From assembly GCA_965645245.1 (NCBI GenBank), contig OZ287067.1, positions 1,550,001-1,614,000 on the forward strand: a DNA stretch of 64,000 nucleotides. Reading direction: 5' to 3'. How positions within the stretch are numbered: the stretch's first letter is position 1; each line of letters begins with the position of its first letter. The translations under genes were made by a program, and so were the position numbers. A model generated the notes under the pieces. The model was not told the DNA's origin and made no database searches. It saw only the letters and a program-made list of their open reading frames with translations. This DNA is from Massalongia carnosa (taxonomy: Eukaryota). This document shows positions 12,658 through 38,549 of this stretch, in pieces.

Positions 12658-12766
12658 TGAGTTGCGCTGTTATTTCTTCCAATTTGACCTCCACCACCCG
12701 ATGCGGCCTTTCCACCACCCGAAACAGGGCCTTCTTAATAAAACTCCTTTTCATCATGATTTCATA

Positions 12767-14676
12767 TATTCGTGCCCCACACTTTCGCTCGGTCGACTCG
12801 CTTAGTGCTAGCCAGCCATACAGCCAGGACCAGCCATACAGCCAAAATCTTCAAATTTCTACCCACCACCTTTGAAAAATTCATTATCCACCACCATCAT
12901 GCCTGAATCTTATACTATAATTGAAAATCGTATTGCAAAGGCCATTGACGCCTTAAACTCACGCAAAAACGCCAAACTCAGTGCAATTGCGCGAGAATTT
13001 AATGTACCTAGAGGAAGGCTTCGTTCTCGGGTCAAAGGGGTGTCATCTAAAACGAAAGTACGAGGACTGCATAATAGACGTCTAAAACCCGATCAGGAGT
13101 TGGCCCTACGTCTATATCTTTTGAAACTGGATTCTTTGGACATTCCGGCTCGTCTGCATATGGTGGAAGTGGCTGCATACTCCATTCTTCGTCAAACGGC
13201 TTCCGATTCGACGCCTCCTCCTCCTCTCGGCTCGCATTGGATCAAAAGATGGCTAAAACGTCAGTCAGATCTTTACAAGGTTAAACGTAAGCCTCTAGCT
13301 GCTGAGCGCAAAAATGCGCATGATTTGGAGTTATTGATGGGGCATTTTGAAAAATATCAAGAAGTAGTGAACAAGTATGGAATAAATCCGAAGGATCAGT
13401 GGAATTTTGATGAAACTGGGTTTCGTATTGGTATGGCACGAAGTGATTGGATAATCACAGCAGATTCTTCTCGACAATCATACAGTTCCGATCCATCAAA
13501 TCGAGAATCGCTGACAGCGGTGGAGTGTATCAACGGGGCTGGTCAGGACATTCCCCCTTTTTTAATTGTGTCTGGCATCAACATCCTCGCTCCCTGGGTC
13601 AAAAACGATCTGAGCAATGATGTAGTCATTTCTACAGCTGAATCAGGCTGTACAAATGACTGGTTGAGTTTGCAATGGATCAAGCATTTCGACAAACACA
13701 CTGAAAAAATAAGAGAGGGGGCTTGGAGACTTTTGATAATGGACGGTTATGGATCTCATCATACTCGAGAATTTCTAGAATATTGTGAAACGAAAAACAT
13801 CATTCCATTCGGATTACCATCTCACACCACACATCTCTTACAACCATTGGATGTGTGTGTTTTTCAACCTCTGAAACACTGGCATTCGGAGGCCGTCAAT
13901 GAAGCAATTCAGAATGGAGATCAAACCTTTTCCAAAGTCGAATTTCTGAATGCATTTAGCAAGTTTCGATCGCTGGCTTTTAAACCTTCCACCATACAGT
14001 CTGCTTGGAGAAAAACAGGCTTGATTCCGTTCAATCCAGGCATTGTTCTCGACAAAGTTCGAGAACTTCTTCCTCCCCCTCCTCGTGAGTCAACTCCGTC
14101 TCATACAGCCCCCCTATCTGTACAAGAAACCCCTCGAACCGTGCGACAGTTGGCCACAGTAGCCACAGAAATCATGACGCATTCAGCTTGCTCGGATGAC
14201 CTCGTACAAATTGTTAGCAAATTTGTAAAGGGAGCTGTTGCCGAGGTTCGAAAAGGCGATCTTCTGGAACAACGCTGGGAACAATAAATCAAGGCCCAAA
14301 CTGCTCGGAAAGCTCGTAAACGAGAGGCCAATAAGATTCTTCATCACGGAGGCGTACTTACTGTTGGTGAGGCCCGTTCAATGGTTCGTGGTAGGGAGGA
14401 GCAGGAGGAGATAAGGGAGAAAGAGCGAAACGTCGCATGGGAAAAGCGTTATTGTACGGCTCTTACCAAAGTGGTTAGGCAGTCAAAAGCGCATAGAAAG
14501 ATGCTTATGACTAGAAGCATGAATAGTCACAAAAGATGGATGATGATCATGAAGGAATTGCTGAAAAAAACCTCGATGTATGTAGGATAGTTGATTTTTG
14601 GCTGTATGGCTGGTCCTGGCTGTATGGCTGGCTAGCACTAAGCGAGTCGACCGAGCGAAAGTGTGGGGCACGAATA
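12767..14676 (+). mobile_element. pogo/Fot1-family DNA transposon nested in the Tc1 element
   Basis: Perfect 81-bp TIRs (12767-12847 and 14596-14676) with the internal direct repeat CAGCCATACAGCCA. Flanked by TA; the boundary is ambiguous by 2 bp because both ends sit in TATA. Confidence 0.95.
12899..14590 (+). pseudogene. pogo/Fot1 transposase (HTH-psq, CENP-B HTH, DDE_1) with one premature stop
   Basis: AIAREFNVPRGRLRSR, WNFDETGF, LLIMDGYGSH and PSHTTHLLQPLDVCVFQPLK. A single in-frame TAA at 14285-14287, after which the same frame continues (GGVLTVGEAR) to TAG ending at 14590. Confidence 0.92.
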
Positions 14677-15280
14677 TAACCTATTACTTTTCGTAATCTT
14701 TTCTGACTATTGTATGTATAATAACGTACCTCTTATCAGTTTTATGCTAGATATTATCTGTACACAAGTTCTTCTGAATCCTCGTGATTATCTAATAAGG
14801 CAAGATTTAAATAGTACGAATAGACATCATGAGGATACCATTTAGAAGTAGGATTTACTACATGTAATATATTCTCACGCTAAAAATGACTAACACGTAT
14901 TAAAACAGCTAGCTCTAGTGCTAAACTTTAGCGTGTCCGATTACTTTTGACTCAGACCTCCGTACGTACCTACTCTATACTCTGTACCGAATCAACACGA
15001 CCGCCTGCGAAGTATACACCAGAGGTATATACGGCTGATCTAATTATGCCTGAACATCTTTAAAGAAAACTCTTTGTGAAATAGTATCGACTTCATCGTA
15101 TGGTTTTCATTGCTGTGGAGTACGCACACTCAAGTTCTTCCCTAATTCTCTCTCAACAGATCGATCTTAGCTGCCTCATTGCTTCGCGTTTCTGGCCTCG
15201 GCACCGATAATCTTTAGGTCAGGAAAAATTAACGTCTATCTTCAAGAAAGCCATTACGGTGATTCTCTACCAGGCGCATT

Positions 15281-16729
15281 ATGGGAGGTTCAGTACCCGA
15301 AATCCCTGGGGTTAAGGCGGAAGGAGACCTTTTAATGTCATTCCGCCGGGAGGTGGCGGAAATGCTTGGCCGATCTTCAATAGGCTTCCCAGGCGCCCAG
15401 CCAGTTAGTTTCGCCGCTCGGCATAAGCTGGAGCTACAGAAGCAAGACTACTACGTGTGTGAGAAATCAGATGGGATACGCTGCCTAATGTACCTAACCG
15501 GCGATGGCCCAGAAGAGATCACCTATCTGATCGACCGGAAGAATGATTATTATCACGTAAAATCATTGCATTTCCCTATCTCGAGTGATCAGGAACTGGA
15601 ATTTCACATGAGAACGCTTGTCGATGGAGAGCTAGTAAACGATACAATGCCAAACGGAACCACTCAGCTTAAGTACCTGGTGTTTGACTGCTTGGTTTTG
15701 GATGGCAGCAGCCTGATGCACCGCACTTTGGACAAGCGCTTAGCATACTTCAGAGATAAGGTGTACAATCCATATCGAGCGCTCTATAAGAAGTATCCCG
15801 AGGAGATTCAGTATCTTCCTTTCATCGTCGAATACAAAAAAATGGAATTCAGCTATGGGATCGAGATGATGTTCCGCGAGGTTCTGCCGAATTTACCGCA
15901 TGGCAACGATGGCTTGATATTTACCTGCAGAAACTCGCCATATCAGTTTGGCACAGACCAACACATCCTGAAATGGAAATCCGAAGACGAGAACTCTATC
16001 GACTTCCGGTTGATGTTTGAGTGGCCCATAGTGACTCCGGAGGATCCAGGCTTTGACGATGATGGGAGCGGGACTTTGTATCCCGACTACGATGCCATGC
16101 CCGTATTCCGCCTTGCTGTGTATCGCACAGACGGCAAGGATGATCGTTATGGCACCATGTCCGTCGAGGAATGGGATTGGACGAAAATGAAAGCTTTAGG
16201 CGAGCCCCTTGATGAGCGGATCGTTGAATGTTATCTGGATGCGCAGAACAGATGGAGGTTTCTACGCTTCCGGGACGATAAGACGCAAGCGAATCACATC
16301 AGTACTGTTGAAAGCGTTATGGAAAGCATACAAGATAAGGTATCGAAGGACGATCTCATTGGCCTCGCGAAGAGTATTAGAGATGAATGGAAGAAGCGAC
16401 AGAGTATGGAAAGTGCGAAAGCAAAGCAAGAGCTCGATGCACGGAGAGTATTGAGCGCACAGGATGCCACCAATAGTCCAAGTGGCGTGATTCACATTGG
16501 GATCAAGAGGAAAGCCGAAGATGATGAGGATTCTGTAGGCGAACACAATGCAACGAAGAGGAAGTTATCTCCTTATGGTTCGCGAAAACTTCTCCATCCT
16601 CACAACACCACCGATGGCGCGTCACAAAATGGTGACTTGAACGTAAAACGGAAGCTGGAAGATGACGAGGACTCCCTGAGCGAGCACAACGCTACGACGA
16701 GGAAAATGTCTCCTCAATCTGATTCATAG
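15281..16729 (+). CDS. CEG1: mRNA capping enzyme, guanylyltransferase subunit
   Basis: FPGAQPVSF, active-site KSDG, LVDGELV, DGLIF, ILKWK and WRFLRFRDDK motifs in a single 482-aa ORF. Confidence 0.96.
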   Translation: MGGSVPEIPGVKAEGDLLMSFRREVAEMLGRSSIGFPGAQPVSFAARHKLELQKQDYYVCEKSDGIRCLMYLTGDGPEEITYLIDRKNDYYHVKSLHFPISSDQELEFHMRTLVDGELVNDTMPNGTTQLKYLVFDCLVLDGSSLMHRTLDKRLAYFRDKVYNPYRALYKKYPEEIQYLPFIVEYKKMEFSYGIEMMFREVLPNLPHGNDGLIFTCRNSPYQFGTDQHILKWKSEDENSIDFRLMFEWPIVTPEDPGFDDDGSGTLYPDYDAMPVFRLAVYRTDGKDDRYGTMSVEEWDWTKMKALGEPLDERIVECYLDAQNRWRFLRFRDDKTQANHISTVESVMESIQDKVSKDDLIGLAKSIRDEWKKRQSMESAKAKQELDARRVLSAQDATNSPSGVIHIGIKRKAEDDEDSVGEHNATKRKLSPYGSRKLLHPHNTTDGASQNGDLNVKRKLEDDEDSLSEHNATTRKMSPQSDS

Positions 16730-18832: not shown

Positions 18833-21800
18833 ATGCCAACCAGAACCGCACTTTCAAAAGCCACTCCCGTGGTCGTGGCAGAGGAAGCCGATGATCTGAT
18901 GACGCCAGGCCTGCAGTTTAATGAAGCCCTCTCATGGCGGGCAGGAAAACCGATCCCTATAGCAGATCTTCTGCGCAGACTTCAGATCCTGTTCAAAGAA
19001 ATGCGGGGCATGGACCAGGAGGAGAATGAGCGGGATTCATTTACGAAAGTCGCAAAAGAGCTAGCAAGTCCAAATCTGCTCAGCCACAAGGACAAGGGCG
19101 TCAAAGCGTGGACAGCCTGCTGTTTGGTAGAGATTCTTAGACTATGCGCCCCAGATGCCCCGTACACGGGGCAACAATTGAAGGTGCGTGGGGGCGGTCA
19201 GGGGCGATATATGGCAAATCAGAAACTAAGGGGCTTATAGGACATTTTCACCATGCTTATACGAATGGTTCTTCCAGCGTTGTCCGACCCATCGAATGCA
19301 TACAACAATCAGCATTTGCATGTTCTGGAATCTTTGGCGCAAGTCAAGAGCATCGTCCTCCTAACCGATATACCTTCTTCTGAAGAACTAACGCAACATC
19401 TCTTCACCTCATTCTTCGATATATTAAGCGGTTCTTCCAAGGCCTCGACAGGAGAACAACTGGGAAAGAATGTAGAACTTCATATGACTTCGATCTTGGG
19501 GATCATGGTGGACGAGTCAGCAGCTTTATCGACAGAGGTCATTGATGTGATAGTAGCACAGTTTCTACGAACGGATCCACGTGCCTCCAGTGGAGGTCCT
19601 GGGAAGAGTAAGAAGAACGGTGTCCAACCAGCCTTCGAAGGCAAACAAACTAAATTAGTATTCAAAGACCTGCCCCCGGCGTACAACATGGCAAAAACGA
19701 TATGCAACACTTGTCCAGAAAAGATGGCACGGCATATCAGTCAATATTTCAATGATGTGATTATGGACGCTGCGAGTTCTTCGTCTGCTAAACAGGGCAA
19801 TAAGAATCGCTCCCACCGAAGGAGCAGCGATAACATGGACGACTCGGATGACGAGCCTAATGGGCCTACTGAAGAAGACCTTAAAGAACTTCATAAGGCC
19901 CACCAGTTGCTTCGAGAGCTTTGGAGAGCGAGTCCTGCAGTATTACAAAACGTAATACCGCAGTTGGAAGCAGAACTCTCGGCGGAAAATGTTCAATTGC
20001 GACTGATAGCAACCGAAACCTTGGGTGATATCATTTCTGGCATAGGATCCGCAGGACCTCCTCCACCACCCACCATGGATGCAGCTGCATATCCCACCCT
20101 GAGTCTCTCGAACCCGGTCGACCCCAAAATATCTCAAAACCTTTCAACAAAACCATCGTCATTAATGTCTTTCCCACAAGCCCATCCTCAGGCATATTCT
20201 AGTTTCCTCCGTCGCAAAAAGGATAAGTCTCCCTTGATTCGAGTGGCATGGACGACTGAAATCGGACGAATCCTAACTACTTCCGCGGGTGGTGTCGGCT
20301 TAAGCCAGAGCGAAGAGCGAACTCTAGTTGAGGACCTTGCACATATGATGGTGGACGCGGACGAAAAGGTGCGAGTTGCGGCCATAAAGGTTGTCGGAAA
20401 TTTTAGCCTTAAAGACGTCATTGACAAGCTAGGCTCGTCGGGCGGCGTCACTACTTCCGATTCAGTGCTTGGGACCCTCGGGGACCGAGTACGTGATAAG
20501 AAGCATACCGTGCATGTTGAAGCGATGAGGGTCCTGAGTTGCATATGGGGTGTGGCTGCAGGAGAGATTGCGGCCGGAGAGGAAAAGGTCATTGCATGTA
20601 TCGGAGCAGTCCCTTCAAGGATTTTGGATGCATATTACGCCAATGACATGGATATCAATGCATCGCTGGATCATGCTATCTTTGAACAACTCTTGCCTAT
20701 GAACTTCCCTCCCGTGAAACTCAAAGCCACCAAGAACGTCAATGGCAATTCTCAGCTAGTGAGAGACAGCCAGACCAATGGAGAAATCGAGGCTGAGAGC
20801 CTGGACCCGGACAAAATCAGAACAGAGAGAATTCTAATTCTTGTCAAAAACTTAGATGAGAGGGCTAAAAAGGTCTTCTATGCAATTCAATCCCGACAGC
20901 TCGTGCTTGCTAAAATCATGACGGCATATTTACAGCGATGCGAGGATTTCAATGTAGGAGCATCGTTAGGCGACAATACTCAAATGCAGTGTGCTAACAA
21001 TAGATTCAGGCAGGCACCATGGATGATAATGAGAAGCAGATCAAAGACCATTTGACACGGCTCATAGACGAGTTCGGCAAACTTCTCCCAGATCCTGTGA
21101 AGACAAAAGCCGATCTCTGGAAGTTTGCGAGGCTGCACGATCGTCGCGCTTACCAGTTAATTCGCTTTTGTATGGGCCCGGAGAGCGAGTTTCGGACCGT
21201 ATTGAGGGCTATGGTGAGTTTTCATCGTACCCTTGGCTGTGAAAGCACAAATTAATTGGTCGACGCAGAAAGAGTTCACCAAGCGTATCGAAGGATCTGC
21301 TCCCGCAGTGCTCGATACGTTAACTCCGCTACTATACCGTGTAGGCGTCATTATCTACAACAAAAGCCATGTTCCTGCCATTATGGAATATTCAAAAAGC
21401 GATGAAAAGTCGCTGGCTGCCACTGCTCACGAAGTCCTACGAGAAATATCATCTCGAACGCCAGAGGTCTTGAAGGCACATGTCCAGGAGATATGTAGAA
21501 CCCTCGAAGAGGAAGCGCCGACTTTAAAGCAAGGAAACGGCCTCGGCGCAGTGGACGACCTAAAGGCATGCGCGTTATTCGCGCCCAAGTTTGCCAAGGA
21601 AATTCCGCGTGACCGGAAGTTCGTCCAAGCCATGACGAATTTTGCTCTAATGGGGACGCCCCCAGAAGCAGCCAAGCATGCTATTACTATCATCATGACC
21701 ACATCAGACAAAAAGCAGATGCTAGCTAAAGATCTGGTTCGCAAGTGTGTAAAAGATTTCCAATTCGGCACAGCTGGTTTCCTTTCTCGGCTTGCCACCC

Positions 21801-23707
21801 TATCGCAGTTAATGCTTCTAGCACCCAATGAGGTGGACGAGGAAAGCGATACCATCATCGATATAGCGATTGAGCGTGTTCTCCTAAAAGTCCGTACAAC
21901 ATCGACTGAAGCCTCGACCTTGTTGGGTTGGTCCGATAACATGGACGAGGAATGCGAGGCGAAATGCTGGGCTTTGAAAATCCTGGTTAATCGCATCCGC
22001 TCTCACCCCACGCTAGAAACCCTTTCAGACCACGCCACTCCAGTTTACAAACTCCTTTCAACTCTCTTAACCAAAGAAGGTGAAGTCGCCAACGAGAAAA
22101 ACACCCCAGACGCCCACAAATCTCGTCTGCGCCTGCTCGCTGCTCGCCTGTACCTTAAGCTTTGCACCAAGAAGCCTCATGATGCTTTGCTAACCCCGCT
22201 TGGTTTCAACAATCTGGCTCTTGTTGCTCAGGACGGCCAACTTCCGGTTCGCCGCGGGTTTATGCAGCGTCTTAAGAAATACCTAGGTCAGCAAAGATTA
22301 CCCCAACGATTCTATACCATCCCCTTCCTCATCGCCTTCGAGCCAAACGACGAGCTGAGATCGGAAACTACAACCTGGATCCGCAGTAGAGCGACTTTTT
22401 TCTCCAATCTCAAATCCCAATCGTCAAGTCTTCCCAACAGCGGAAAAGCAGCCATCGTAATGGAATCCGTGTTCGCCCGCTTAATCTCTCTTCTCGCTCA
22501 CCATCCGGACTACGGTGATAACCCTGAGGACCTAATAGATTTTAGCCGCTTCCTAATCTTATACCTCCAAAACGTCGCCACGGAAGAAAATATTTCGCTA
22601 ATTTACCACATAGCCCAACGCGTCAAGCAATGTCGCGACGCCGTCGTTCCTCGCGCATCGGTCGGCGAACCCTCCCCGTTTGACAACATTCTCTACCACC
22701 TCAGCGATCTCGCCCAGTTCACCATTCACAGATTCGAAGACGCTCACTCCTGGAACATCCAGACTCTGCCCGCTAAGATTCGCTTGCCCACTTCTCTCTT
22801 CGCCGAACTTACTTCCCACGACGAGGCACAGCAGATTGCAGAACGTAATTACCTTCCCGAGGACGTAGAAGCGAGCGTCGAAGCGCTCGTGCGCGCGAGC
22901 CTACGGAGCGGACGAGGCAGAAAGCGGAAAAGCGAAGGGGCGGACGTGCATGGTGAAGGGCGGGAGCACAAAAAAGTAAAAGGGCTACCAATAGGAAAGG
23001 CAGAGACGGGGGCCGCTAAAGAGAAGAAACCCCACGCCAAGGCCTCCGGGACGCCGGCGGTGGTGAAAACGCCGAAGAAGAAGCAGTCGACGCACGGGGG
23101 TAGTGGAAAAGCGAAGGCAGAGAAAGGGGAGGCGTCGAGCGAGCGGCGACGAAGCGACCGAGTGAAGTCAACGGAGGAAAAGAGTTATATCGAACGCGAC
23201 GATGACGAAGATGACGAGGAGATGGAGGTTTTGTCGTGGGAGTATATAAACGAGCAGCCGCGTGTGGAGGAAGAAGAAGAGGATGGGAGGGAGCTAGATG
23301 GCGTTGAGGAAGACGACGGAGACATTGAAGCCCACGAGGAGGATGAAGAAGTTGTGGAGCAAGATTCCGACGATATGCAAGAAGCGCCAACCGAGTCCCT
23401 AGCCCAACGCCCGGAACCGGCAAAAGGCCGGTTAAAAGGCCGAAAAACTCCCACCCCCAGGAAACCAGCCGAGGCCGCGAAACCCATCACCAGCAGCGCT
23501 ACGAAAGCCAAAGCGAAGCAAAAGCCCGCAACACGAACACCCCCAATGGTAACGGCGACGGCGGCGGCGACAAGGAATATGAGAGCCGGGGTCGGGGCGA
23601 AGGGGCGAGGTGCTGTTGTCATTGCAGAGGAGAAGACGCAGGAAATCAGAGAGAAGGACGAGGATGATGAGGACATCTCAGACCCGCTTTCCGAAGAGGA
23701 AGACTGA
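18833..23707 (+). CDS. PDS5: Sister chromatid cohesion protein Pds5 (BimD/Spo76)
   Basis: LLSHKDKGVKAWTACCLVEILRLCAPDAPY, HEAT repeats, RLISLLAHHPD and an acidic/basic tail. Introns at ~19184-19240, 20954-21009 and 21214-21268. Confidence 0.95.
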
Positions 23708-35875: not shown

Positions 35876-36880
35876 GGTGGAGTTTTTTCTTCTTGGGTTT
35901 GGGGAGGGGATGGGAAGTTGACTCATCGGGCGGGCGCACGGAGTTAAATACCTACTTGGAGCGAAGCGGAGGAGGTAGGAGTGTTTCATGTTGGGGTTCG
36001 GGGGCAGAAGACAAAATCAGAGAGGTGGGATTGATGCTATAATCTGGATACGGAATACTCTGTACCTGAGCACCTATATACCCCTCACTGCCGCTCAATC
36101 GGTCCAACCCAAACACTACATTCTTCACAGCGGTCGGGAGAATCCCAACCCACAAGCTACAGGAGCATACTTAGCTAGAGCCCGAGCTTGTAGGTTTGGT
36201 GGTTTTCTCTGCGCGACTGTTGCGCTTTCTAATCATGAGATCTCATCTGCTATCATTTCGTGAAGAATCCCCTATGTATTGGAGCAAAAGCACGCGGCTT
36301 AAACCTTGCGTAACTCCTTGTATAGAGTAAAGCTTGTGTTTTCGTTACTCCTTCAGCCAGATCTTGCATAGCAACGAGAAACAAAGCTCGTCTACCGTCG
36401 GCGTCGAGTTGATCCCAACGTACACCGCGAGAATTTTACTGTCAGAAGCTTCCAATATGGTCATGAGGTGCACAGAACTCAGCCTAGATAATGAAATATG
36501 TAGCCAATATCGCAAATTTTGGGTCTCCTGAAGGCTACCAGAAATCGATTTGGTGTTGATGCAGAGTTCCTCGAAGTTGCTCAAGTAAATCTTCGGTTCT
36601 ATCAATACAACAGCTGTGATTCCAACACCACGTTAAATCTCGATCGAGTACGGATTTGCAGAGAGGTGTCCAGGTATGAGTGATATGGGAGTAGGATTAA
36701 TAGAGTAGCGGGGACCGTCGATCGAAAATAACAAGGACATAACTAGATGCTGTTAGCTACGCAATACTCCAATGATTCTTAATAAATGCCTGCGACTGGG
36801 CTTGCCACATTGCTCAAACTCCGTACTTCACACAGAGTACTTCTGTACATCGACGGAAACACGAAATCCGCCAAGAGTGG

Positions 36881-38226
36881 CACGCGGGTGAAAAAAAAAG
36901 GGCAAGGTGAGCCGAAACTCCCCCACCAAAACTTACCCTTTTCTTCCCTTTTTTCTTCCCCATCTTCTTCCCCATTCAACATTTCAATTCGTATGACCAT
37001 TGAAATTCTACATACATTCTATTCAATAGCTAGTCATCGCACCCTCAGCCCTAATTACCTCTTCCAATCGTTTGGGCATTGATCGAACTCTTTCATTGAT
37101 GAATTCCTGCGTCACCCGTTCCCATCCATCCCTAATCAGCTGCTTCAAGCTGACATCGTCCCAATGAGGATACTTTCGAACATGCTGCTTCGCTGGCTGC
37201 CAGCAATTTTCTATAGGGGACAAATCAGGTGATGAGGCACAATTGAAATAATGCTTTAAATGATGATCTTCCTTTCATTTCTTGACGGCATTTCTTGTCT
37301 TGCCCGTGCCATGACCAGAGTCTCCATCTTCTTCAAGTACGAAGTCATCCCCGCGCTCCAGCCAGGGCTTGACGACGGGGTCAAGAACGGATTCAATATA
37401 CACCTGATGAGTCATTTTACCATTGCTGTTGCCCGGCACGTCATAAAAGATAATAGCCGACTTGAAATTGTAGCCAATTGCAGCCCAGCAATGTTTTCGT
37501 TTTCGATCTTTCTCAGGAGGCGGGTCACGATGCTGTATGCAATCCCAACGATATCGTGTTCCGGGCTGACGAATGATTCGTAACTGTCCTTCCGGCCCAT
37601 ATCCAAAATGAATCTCATCACTAAATCGTACGCGATCCCATTGCTCCGGTTTGGGATATCTGGTCAGCATCATGTGAGCAAATTCGACCCGTCTTTCCAT
37701 AGGTGGGTCGGCCAGCCATCCCTTGACGCAGGCCAGACATTTCTCATAGTTTAGAGCAGCCGACATAACATTGTGCATTGTACGACCGACAACGTCGGCC
37801 CCAATCTCCATAGCCAATTGTTCCCATGTGTATCGTTTTCCTTCCAACTGTAGCCCCCAATCTTGTAGAATGTGATCTGCCTCCTGTATTTGTGCTTCCG
37901 TGACTTTTGATTTGCGACCGCGTGTCTCAACGAGCGTTGAATGATGTCCTCTTCTAGAAGATGCTCCGTTTCGAATGATCTTATAGCCCTGTCTCTCGCT
38001 TCGGATGCCAAAATGCTGAAAAATCTCTCGAGGATCGATGGAAATGCCTTTTGCAAGAAGAAATTCATAAGCTCCCTGCACCTTGGCCTTTTGAGGTGTA
38101 TCGTAGTGGGATGGCATTTGAAATGTTGAATGAGGAAGAGGATGGGGAAGAAAAAGGGGAAGAAAAGGGGTAAGTTTTGGTGGGGGAGTTTCGGCTCACC
38201 TTGCCATTTTTTTTTTCACCCGCGTG
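36881..38226 (-). mobile_element. IS630-Tc1-mariner-type (DD38E) DNA transposon with CAC..GTG ends and a 5-bp TSD
   Basis: Imperfect TIRs of about 107 bp (36881-36987 and 38118-38226) starting CACGCGGGTGAAAAAAAAA. AGTGG is duplicated at 36876-36880 and 38227-38231, and neither end is flanked by TA. Confidence 0.92.
37023..38117 (-). pseudogene. Tc1-like transposase, DD38E, with a single in-frame TGA
   Basis: ETRGRK, RVRFSDEIHF, HCWAAIGY, VLEEDGDSGH..SSPDLSPIENCW (38 residues between D2 and E) and SMPKRLEEVIRAEG. TGA at 37275-37277 in KK*KE. Confidence 0.9.
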
Positions 38227-38549
38227 AGTGGTTAAAGTGCTAGGTAACTAGTTAGCGGCGGGAAGATGCGTTGTGACCTAATCAGATCATCAGATAACAC
38301 GCTCTATACCAGGTACTTTTCAACCCATTTCTTGCCCACTACCTTCTACAATCCTATCCCTTCGTTCTTCTTTCTAATCCTTATTACATAGTTTTAATCT
38401 ATCCAGATCAGGCGTCTGCTTTGAATTCTAGACAATCATGCCAAAGTCTTCAAGCTTGAGTTCGAACAAGAGCGTCCATTGATGGGAGACGACGGAGATC
38501 AATCATCCCTTAATCGTGCCAAAACACTAAACCCAACCGAGTTGTTGCT

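Follow-up and report, generated by a model that had tools for sequence, protein, structure and literature searches.

A compact Tc1-like transposon flanked by a 5-bp repeat in place of TA in the genome of Massalongia carnosa

The 64-kb stretch of Massalongia carnosa DNA analysed here (assembly GCA_965645245.1, contig OZ287067.1, positions 1,550,001 to 1,614,000; hereafter the window, in whose coordinates all positions are given) contains a compact DNA transposon of 1346 bp (36881–38226), consisting essentially of two long terminal inverted repeats (TIRs) together with one transposase gene. The element is a nonsense-mutated, non-autonomous copy of a cut-and-paste Tc1-like transposon, and its transposase is securely placed, by sequence and by predicted fold, in the IS630-Tc1-mariner (ITm) superfamily. 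Because the enzyme is homologous to those of the superfamily but the target duplication, AGTGG instead of TA, is atypical, we class it as a variant of the superfamily. The best reading of its flanks, to which we give a probability of about 0.6 on the strength of one insertion, is that AGTGG reflects a heritable 5-bp integration geometry of the lineage. More tentative, and in our estimate somewhat short of an even chance, is the wider proposition that a widespread ITm clade of the Pezizomycotina gave up the 2-bp TA target for a TA-independent 5-bp stagger, which would make it the first such ITm lineage, and that it passed unremarked because classification pipelines assume TA.

The flanking repeat and the element ends

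The two ends of the element (CACGCGGG at its opening and CCCGCGTG at its close) are perfectly complementary over their outermost 19 nt. The full repeats, put at about 107 bp in a first-pass annotation that a model had made from the letters of the window, measure 107 and 109 nt and are 94.5% identical across 109 columns of a blastn alignment, the arrangement of TIRs around one transposase gene being that of an ITm element. An end-to-end alignment sets the beginning of the likeness between the ends, which extends over ~107/109 nt, exactly at CAC, the bases outside being mismatched, and the TIRs terminate exactly in CAC...GTG. The same annotation had described CAC..GTG ends bordered on both sides by AGTGG and without TA, a description upheld both by the sequence and by the end alignment. 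No TA dinucleotide is found at either junction, nor in the outermost 40 nt at each end, and where insertion at TA and its duplication mark the ITm superfamily, this single copy has AGTGG/AGTGG.

Agreement of all five flanking bases by chance has a probability of 9.8e-4 given the base composition, and over the whole window two 5-mers at the same offset are identical with a frequency of 1.18e-3. When the window was scanned for pairs of inverted repeats (10-nt exact seed, maximal outward, flanking direct repeats of 2–10 bp), 34 candidates emerged, among which the AGTGG element alone combines a flanking repeat of at least 5 bp with long arms; the remaining 33 have arms of 12–18 nt and repeats of 2–4 bp, as expected by chance. 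A slide of the boundary by one base is possible, since a G both precedes the left end and closes the element, and the alternative register GAGTG/G...T/GAGTG is also 5 bp long, but it breaks the symmetry of the ends. In the symmetric register no duplication length from 6 to 10 bp fits. AGTGG is likely to be a genuine target-site duplication (TSD) made upon insertion, since the alternative calls for a rare aberrant event together with a coincidence of about one in a thousand.

A second, unrelated transposon in the same window provides a control. This pogo/Fot1-like element (12765–14678), whose gene is a 491-codon open frame on the + strand (12812–14287) with DDE_1 and Tc5 helix-turn-helix (HTH) domains, has 83-nt perfectly complementary ends and TA on both sides, with TATA reading at each junction. 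Since it displays the canonical TA, the AGTGG flanks are not an artefact of assembly or host. The identity of its own ends suggests a young copy, possibly an active one.

The transposase family and its superfamily placement

A word-indexed protein search with the transposase drew 1591 candidates, of which 388 reached E ≤ 1e-3, and the best 120 of the 388 were listed. The closest listed match, 97% identical, is C-terminally truncated and stands for a 30-sequence cluster, so that copies in the host genome are probably numerous; the next ones are 72–77% identical; all named matches among these 120 belong to the Pezizomycotina (Pleosporales, Helotiales, Colletotrichum), the genera being Bimuria, Clathrospora, Pyrenophora, Macroventuria, Botrytis, Rutstroemia and Colletotrichum, and the species including Pyrenophora tritici-repentis, Clathrospora elynae, Bimuria novae-zelandiae, Botrytis deweyae and Colletotrichum sublineola. 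With a profile searched against a 50%-identity library, 16,568, 4,933 and 503 clusters were found at E ≤ 1e-3, 1e-10 and 1e-30, respectively. The family thus sampled is large, with named members only in the Pezizomycotina.

A family alignment was assembled from the window protein and 83 of the 120 listed matches, picked by eye for near-full coverage, leaving out 37 shorter or partial matches including the truncated 97% one. Of these 84 sequences 75 retain all three residues of the D/D/E triad, and across the 84 the spacing between the second D and the E is 37 residues in 42, 38 in 27, 39 in three, 40 in six, 41 in five and 43 in one. Since 37 is the commonest spacing, the DD38E label given in the first-pass annotation describes the window copy, in which the 38-residue spacing does occur, and not the family, for which it finds no support as a lineage signature. 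Many relatives are predicted on contigs of 1.28–1.45 kb (1294, 1350, 1284, 1419 and 1317 bp, for instance), near the 1346 bp of the present element. These short contigs may hint that the compact architecture is typical of the family; they are also what is expected if multi-copy elements assemble stand-alone.

Several lines of evidence agree on where this protein belongs. Pfam DDE_3 is detected in it with E 1.1e-9 and 38.7 bits (cut-off 28.6) and in all 12 family members scanned, while HTH_Tnp_Tc3_2 is recognized in two of the 12 and not in the window copy. The NCBIfam IS630 model (NF033545), a point of likeness to the bacterial IS630 elements, aligns nearly end to end (residues 24–335, E 1.5e-10), but at 41 bits it stays well under its cut-off of 100. 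Among solved structures, a sequence match is obtained to the catalytic domain of Sleeping Beauty alone (5cr4, E 3.5e-9), with SPDLSPIE falling on SPDLNPIE and four extra residues accounting for a spacing of 38 against the 34 of this DD34E enzyme. Over the catalytic domain the window protein also shares 23% identity (E 8e-17) with a spider protein that bears the name Tc1 transposase.

An AlphaFold model computed from the 84-sequence alignment (mean predicted local distance difference test score, pLDDT, of 87.4) points the same way. In a Foldseek comparison with the PDB the best 15 matches are chains of Mos1, Sleeping Beauty or SETMAR/Metnase only (E 8e-11 to 1e-6), followed after a gap by retroviral integrases at E ≥ 1.4e-3. 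The model predicts two N-terminal bundles of three to four helices (residues 9–48 and 74–122) joined by a linker in which R66-G67-R68 is conserved at 90% or more in the family alignment. This predicted fold corresponds to the bipartite paired-like HTH with a basic, GRPR-like linker of the ITm superfamily, and the RNase-H-like DDE/D catalytic domain is recognized by Pfam, by the sequence match to the PDB and by Foldseek alike. The Tc1-type identity proposed in the first-pass annotation is therefore borne out by these three approaches.

The transposase gene and the state of the copy

The features of the element are collected in Table 1. The first-pass annotation had described a 364-codon transposase whose ATG directly adjoins a TIR, and this is what is found on the minus strand from 38117 to 37023, the ATG at 38117 being the first base past the right TIR. 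The motifs that it had named, SDE (here within RFSDE), EEDGDSGH and SPDLSPIE, are likewise present. The protein has the predicted layout of an N-terminal paired-like double HTH, an RGRK linker (residues 66–69) and a DDE RNase-H-like catalytic domain.

Table 1. Features of the AGTGG-flanked element in window coordinates
Feature	Position	Strand	Basis
AGTGG, left flanking direct repeat, putative TSD	36876..36880	.	sequence
Left TIR, 107 nt, opening with CACGCGGGTG then A9; inner half CT-rich	36881..36987	+	
Spacer of 35 nt (3' untranslated region), transposase stop codon to left TIR	36988..37022	-	
Transposase gene, 364 codons and terminal TGA (37023-37025)	37023..38117	-	open reading frame, Pfam, structure model
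E303 codon (SPDLSPIEN), catalytic Glu, 38 residues past D264	37209..37211	-	
In-frame TGA, codon 281; Trp in 83/83 aligned relatives	37275..37277	-	
D264 codon (EEDGDSGH), second catalytic Asp, which falls in the alignment on the first D of Sleeping Beauty SB100X D-x-D-x-x-H (printed hDNDpkH)	37326..37328	-	
D167 codon (RFSDE), first catalytic Asp	37617..37619	-	
Right TIR, 109 nt, closing with CACCCGCGTG; adjoins the transposase ATG	38118..38226	-	
AGTGG, right flanking direct repeat, putative TSD	38227..38231	.	sequence

The proposal that an in-frame TGA stands in place of a tryptophan codon is fully supported by the aligned relatives. Of the 76 columns in which 90% or more of the other 83 sequences agree, three differ in this copy (I244V, W281stop and E330D). 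Judging from its reading frame, it is inactivated by the TGA at codon 281, which appears to be the only obvious lesion in the transposase, though this is no proof of activity once repaired. A dead copy with intact ends could plausibly still be moved by an intact relative. Repeat-induced point mutation (RIP) was considered as the origin of the stop and rejected: no RIP signature is seen (TpA/ApT 0.42, (CpA+TpG)/(ApC+GpT) 1.65), and, as judged by eye from the codon context, the TGG-to-TGA change is not the kind that RIP favours.

Because the right TIR abuts the ATG, the 5' untranslated region must lie within that TIR, and the promoter of the transposase gene is probably also found there, with the CT-rich block just upstream of the ATG. 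The inner halves of both TIRs (38118–38175 and 36930–36987) are CT-rich and built of repeated TCTTCCCC-like units that end a few bases before the ATG. A CT-rich block just upstream of genes is common in fungi, and here it may act as the promoter of the element, as a set of transposase-binding repeats, or as both. Since the two ends carry the same block, the one at the left end could drive inward antisense transcription.

Comparison with known systems

The transposase resembles that of Sleeping Beauty and Tc1 in its predicted fold (5cr4 target-normalised TM-score 0.75 in Foldseek), in the layout D...D-x-D-x-x-H...SPDL-x-PIE and in its C-terminal helices, and differs from these DD34E enzymes in having four more residues between D and E, in an identity of 23–24% and in the TA duplication that they produce. 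Over the full length the best match in structure is Mos1 (4u7b, 5hoo, 3hos and 3hot, with E about 1e-10 and 363–391 aligned columns), which includes the N-terminal double HTH region, but is only 15–16% identical to the present transposase. It is a DD34D enzyme, with a DDD rather than a DDE triad, and has a strict TA target and a 2-bp stagger in its strand-transfer complex.

The first-pass annotation had also drawn attention to a resemblance to Transib/RAG. CAC ends and a 5-bp duplication are a hallmark of Transib, and the present copy has both, so that this part of the resemblance stands. It is nevertheless superficial, since the transposase is not RAG1-core-like, DDE_3 being the only Pfam match and Tc1/mariner enzymes the fold matches. 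In an excerpt of a fungal genome survey, Transib is reported as missing from fungi (PMC5751038). Identity with Transib is ruled out by the enzyme itself, with its DDE_3 domain and Tc1/mariner fold.

Among fungal elements, a close parallel is offered by impala of Fusarium oxysporum, the ascomycete relative that has been studied best and from which the mimp elements derive: both have an ascomycete host and a single intronless Tc1-like DDE gene, and the commonest spacing of the present family is 37. At about 1.3 kb, impala is also of similar size. Passages of PMC7325037 place impala in 'group 9' of the Tc1 family, a DD37E group that includes many Pezizomycotina proteins. When the first 16 nt of the TIR are compared by hand with the impala/mimp consensus as given in an excerpt of PMC3599309, 10 of 14 specified positions match, in part through the A-run; this is suggestive only of homology between the present end and that of impala, which abuts TA there and AGTGG here. 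According to the same excerpt, the repeats of impala are about 27 nt long and impala/mimp require and duplicate TA, whereas the present copy has AGTGG next to repeats of 107/109 nt, and short impala-type repeats followed by TA are thus absent. The named genera among the best 120 of the 388 matches show no overlap with those of the published impala clade (Fusarium, Aspergillus, Penicillium, Talaromyces, Rhynchosporium), and a DD37E relative of 341 residues that is 32% identical to the window protein (P0385) returned 28 matches, none named impala or Fusarium.

The DD38E group known as Intruder is described in passages of PMC7731502 as found only in animals after searches that included fungi, and as flanked by TA. 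Its likeness to the present element is confined to the 38-residue spacing of the window copy, a spacing that is in the minority within the present family (27/84), and nothing in the data links the family to animal DD38E/Intruder.

In the literature searched, no description of the present family was found under DD38E, DD37E or DDE_3 in fungi. The first-pass annotation had named the Beauveria element hupfer as a possible Tc1-like precedent with a 5-bp duplication, but no paper on hupfer was found in the same literature. Passages on 5-bp duplications that were met there concerned long terminal repeat retrotransposons, miniature-element families without a link to the present one, or Tn3.

Proposed integration mechanism and alternative explanations

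If the 5-bp geometry belongs to the lineage, the N-terminal double HTH of an intact family member would bind the 107/109-nt TIRs, which would also carry the promoter. The DDE domain would then excise the element and join its CA-3' ends to the target with a 5-bp stagger, and gap repair after such joining would leave the AGTGG duplication. The lineage as a whole would integrate with this TA-independent 5-bp geometry instead of the 2-bp TA of Tc1, Sleeping Beauty, Mos1 and impala, which is the weakest step of the scheme, being drawn from a single insertion. A 5-bp stagger is otherwise used by retroviral integrases, Mu and Transib/RAG.

Several observations weigh against such a lineage. The 5-bp geometry is read from one copy only: beyond the element itself, blastn and tblastn turned up neither another copy nor a solo repeat nor a miniature form derived from it in the 64-kb window, and the terminal 15-mer, sought in the window with up to three mismatches, occurs at the two ends and at one further site with three mismatches, the three sites found comparing with 1.99 expected and lying within chance. 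The TA target partly defines the ITm superfamily, and IS630 too duplicates TA, according to passages of PMC7325037; TA follows the mimp/impala repeat consensus in 150 of 158 matches and is called a 'required target site' in an excerpt of PMC3599309; and TA is likewise the duplication of a DDE_3 element from a basidiomycete, one whose repeats are 214 nt long, as described in part of PMC4905642. The prior for a 5-bp lineage is low because the superfamily, impala/mimp and the basidiomycete element all use TA. Nothing in the structure was found that would explain a wider stagger. The literature searched, which took in neither most subscription journals nor Repbase and Dfam, yielded no account of any Tc1-like transposon that makes a 5-bp duplication; Repbase and Dfam may already record the consensus ends and TSD of the family.

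Scans of bacterial and archaeal contigs brought no help to the proposed lineage either. A 12-sequence alignment matched 110 stretches, none of them a relative, and when a degenerate pattern of the PDLxxIENCW motif was used in another scan, it retrieved at least 120 loci, all with bacterial titles and with no member of the fungal family among them. Of the 120 bacterial loci fetched, 91 gave tblastn matches, which lie in the C-terminal region of the transposase; among the 60 rows listed, alignments of at least 100 amino acids are 25–32% identical and short ones up to 44%. Many bacterial IS630 transposases share the PDLxxIENCW motif, which surrounds the catalytic Glu, the listed titles being mostly cyanobacterial (Nostoc, Scytonema, Leptolyngbya and others). 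These bacterial matches reflect the search pattern and are no evidence of transfer.

Among the other explanations, the one that survives best, though we regard it as unlikely, is that the family is an ordinary TA-duplicating Tc1-like one, the window copy being a rare non-TA or otherwise aberrant integration whose flanks share five bases by chance. That a single copy was seen agrees with this, as does the use of TA by all characterised relatives in the parts of PMC7325037, PMC3599309 and PMC4905642 drawn upon. Sleeping Beauty furnishes a precedent, since an excerpt of PMC5801840 puts non-TA insertions at about 1.4% of 2,018,489, some of them without proper duplications, but the validated non-TA insertions reported there are still at dinucleotide targets and not at 5 bp. 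An aberrant integration would, moreover, have to coincide with a chance 5/5 match of the flanks, at about 1e-3, and to have left both ends complete and symmetric to the base.

Less probable again is the capture by host end-joining of an excised or linear copy at a chromosomal break with 5-nt overhangs, the filling-in of which would have made the direct repeat. Such an event would allow the enzyme to be specific for TA even though this one copy has a 5-bp repeat that is not TA, but no direct evidence speaks for it. The end of the element lines up by hand with the impala end consensus (excerpt of PMC3599309), which speaks against capture. So do the exact mirror-image positions, CAC and GTG, at which the ends stop, given that Tc1-type excision leaves staggered ends, as is generally known, and that such capture usually trims or adds bases.

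It is very improbable that the TIRs and the 5-bp TSD come from another superfamily, Transib-like or unclassified, with the Tc1-like gene a passenger of a different enzyme: the CAC ends and the duplication would fit the Transib hallmark, but the element is too compact, the ATG abutting one TIR and the stop codon lying 35 nt from the other, it holds no second open reading frame with a transposase domain, and its relatives on contigs of 1.28–1.45 kb would fit a compact size typical of the family. Two miniature-element families with 5–6-bp duplications are described in another ascomycete in part of PMC4522978, which favours such an origin, while the reported absence of Transib from fungi (excerpt of PMC5751038) counts against it.

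Genomic context

The relatives of the mRNA capping enzyme encoded in the window (15263–16729) are overwhelmingly from lichen-forming Lecanoromycetes, the nearest being 72–76% identical and the best named one, from Pseudocyphellaria aurata, 69%, followed by many lichen-fungus assemblies. On these sequence matches the host is a lichen-forming ascomycete of the Lecanoromycetes. The genes flanking the transposon are ordinary fungal housekeeping genes (SNF5, the mRNA capping enzyme, PDS5, YL1, RRM and PUF proteins), and inspection of open reading frames places the element in apparently intergenic DNA. PDS5, which is cohesin-associated, is divided between two long open frames (19241–21055 and 21218–23707), presumably by an intron or a frame change, an ordinary feature.

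Implications

Should the AGTGG repeat prove to be a one-off, the element would be an ordinary dead Tc1-like transposon and a matter of routine annotation. If instead the lineage does integrate with a heritable 5-bp geometry, the consequences would be wider. The TA duplication of these transposons reflects a fixed 2-bp active-site spacing on sharply bent target DNA, and a clade whose homologous enzyme duplicates 5 bp without TA would be a natural experiment in how the stagger of a DDE transpososome is adjusted. Classification based on TSDs could mis-sort such fungal transposons, and a compact Tc1-like system of about 1.35 kb that is free of TA sites could be of use as a tool. The element would then represent a new variant inside an established superfamily and would hold real interest for specialists in transposons.

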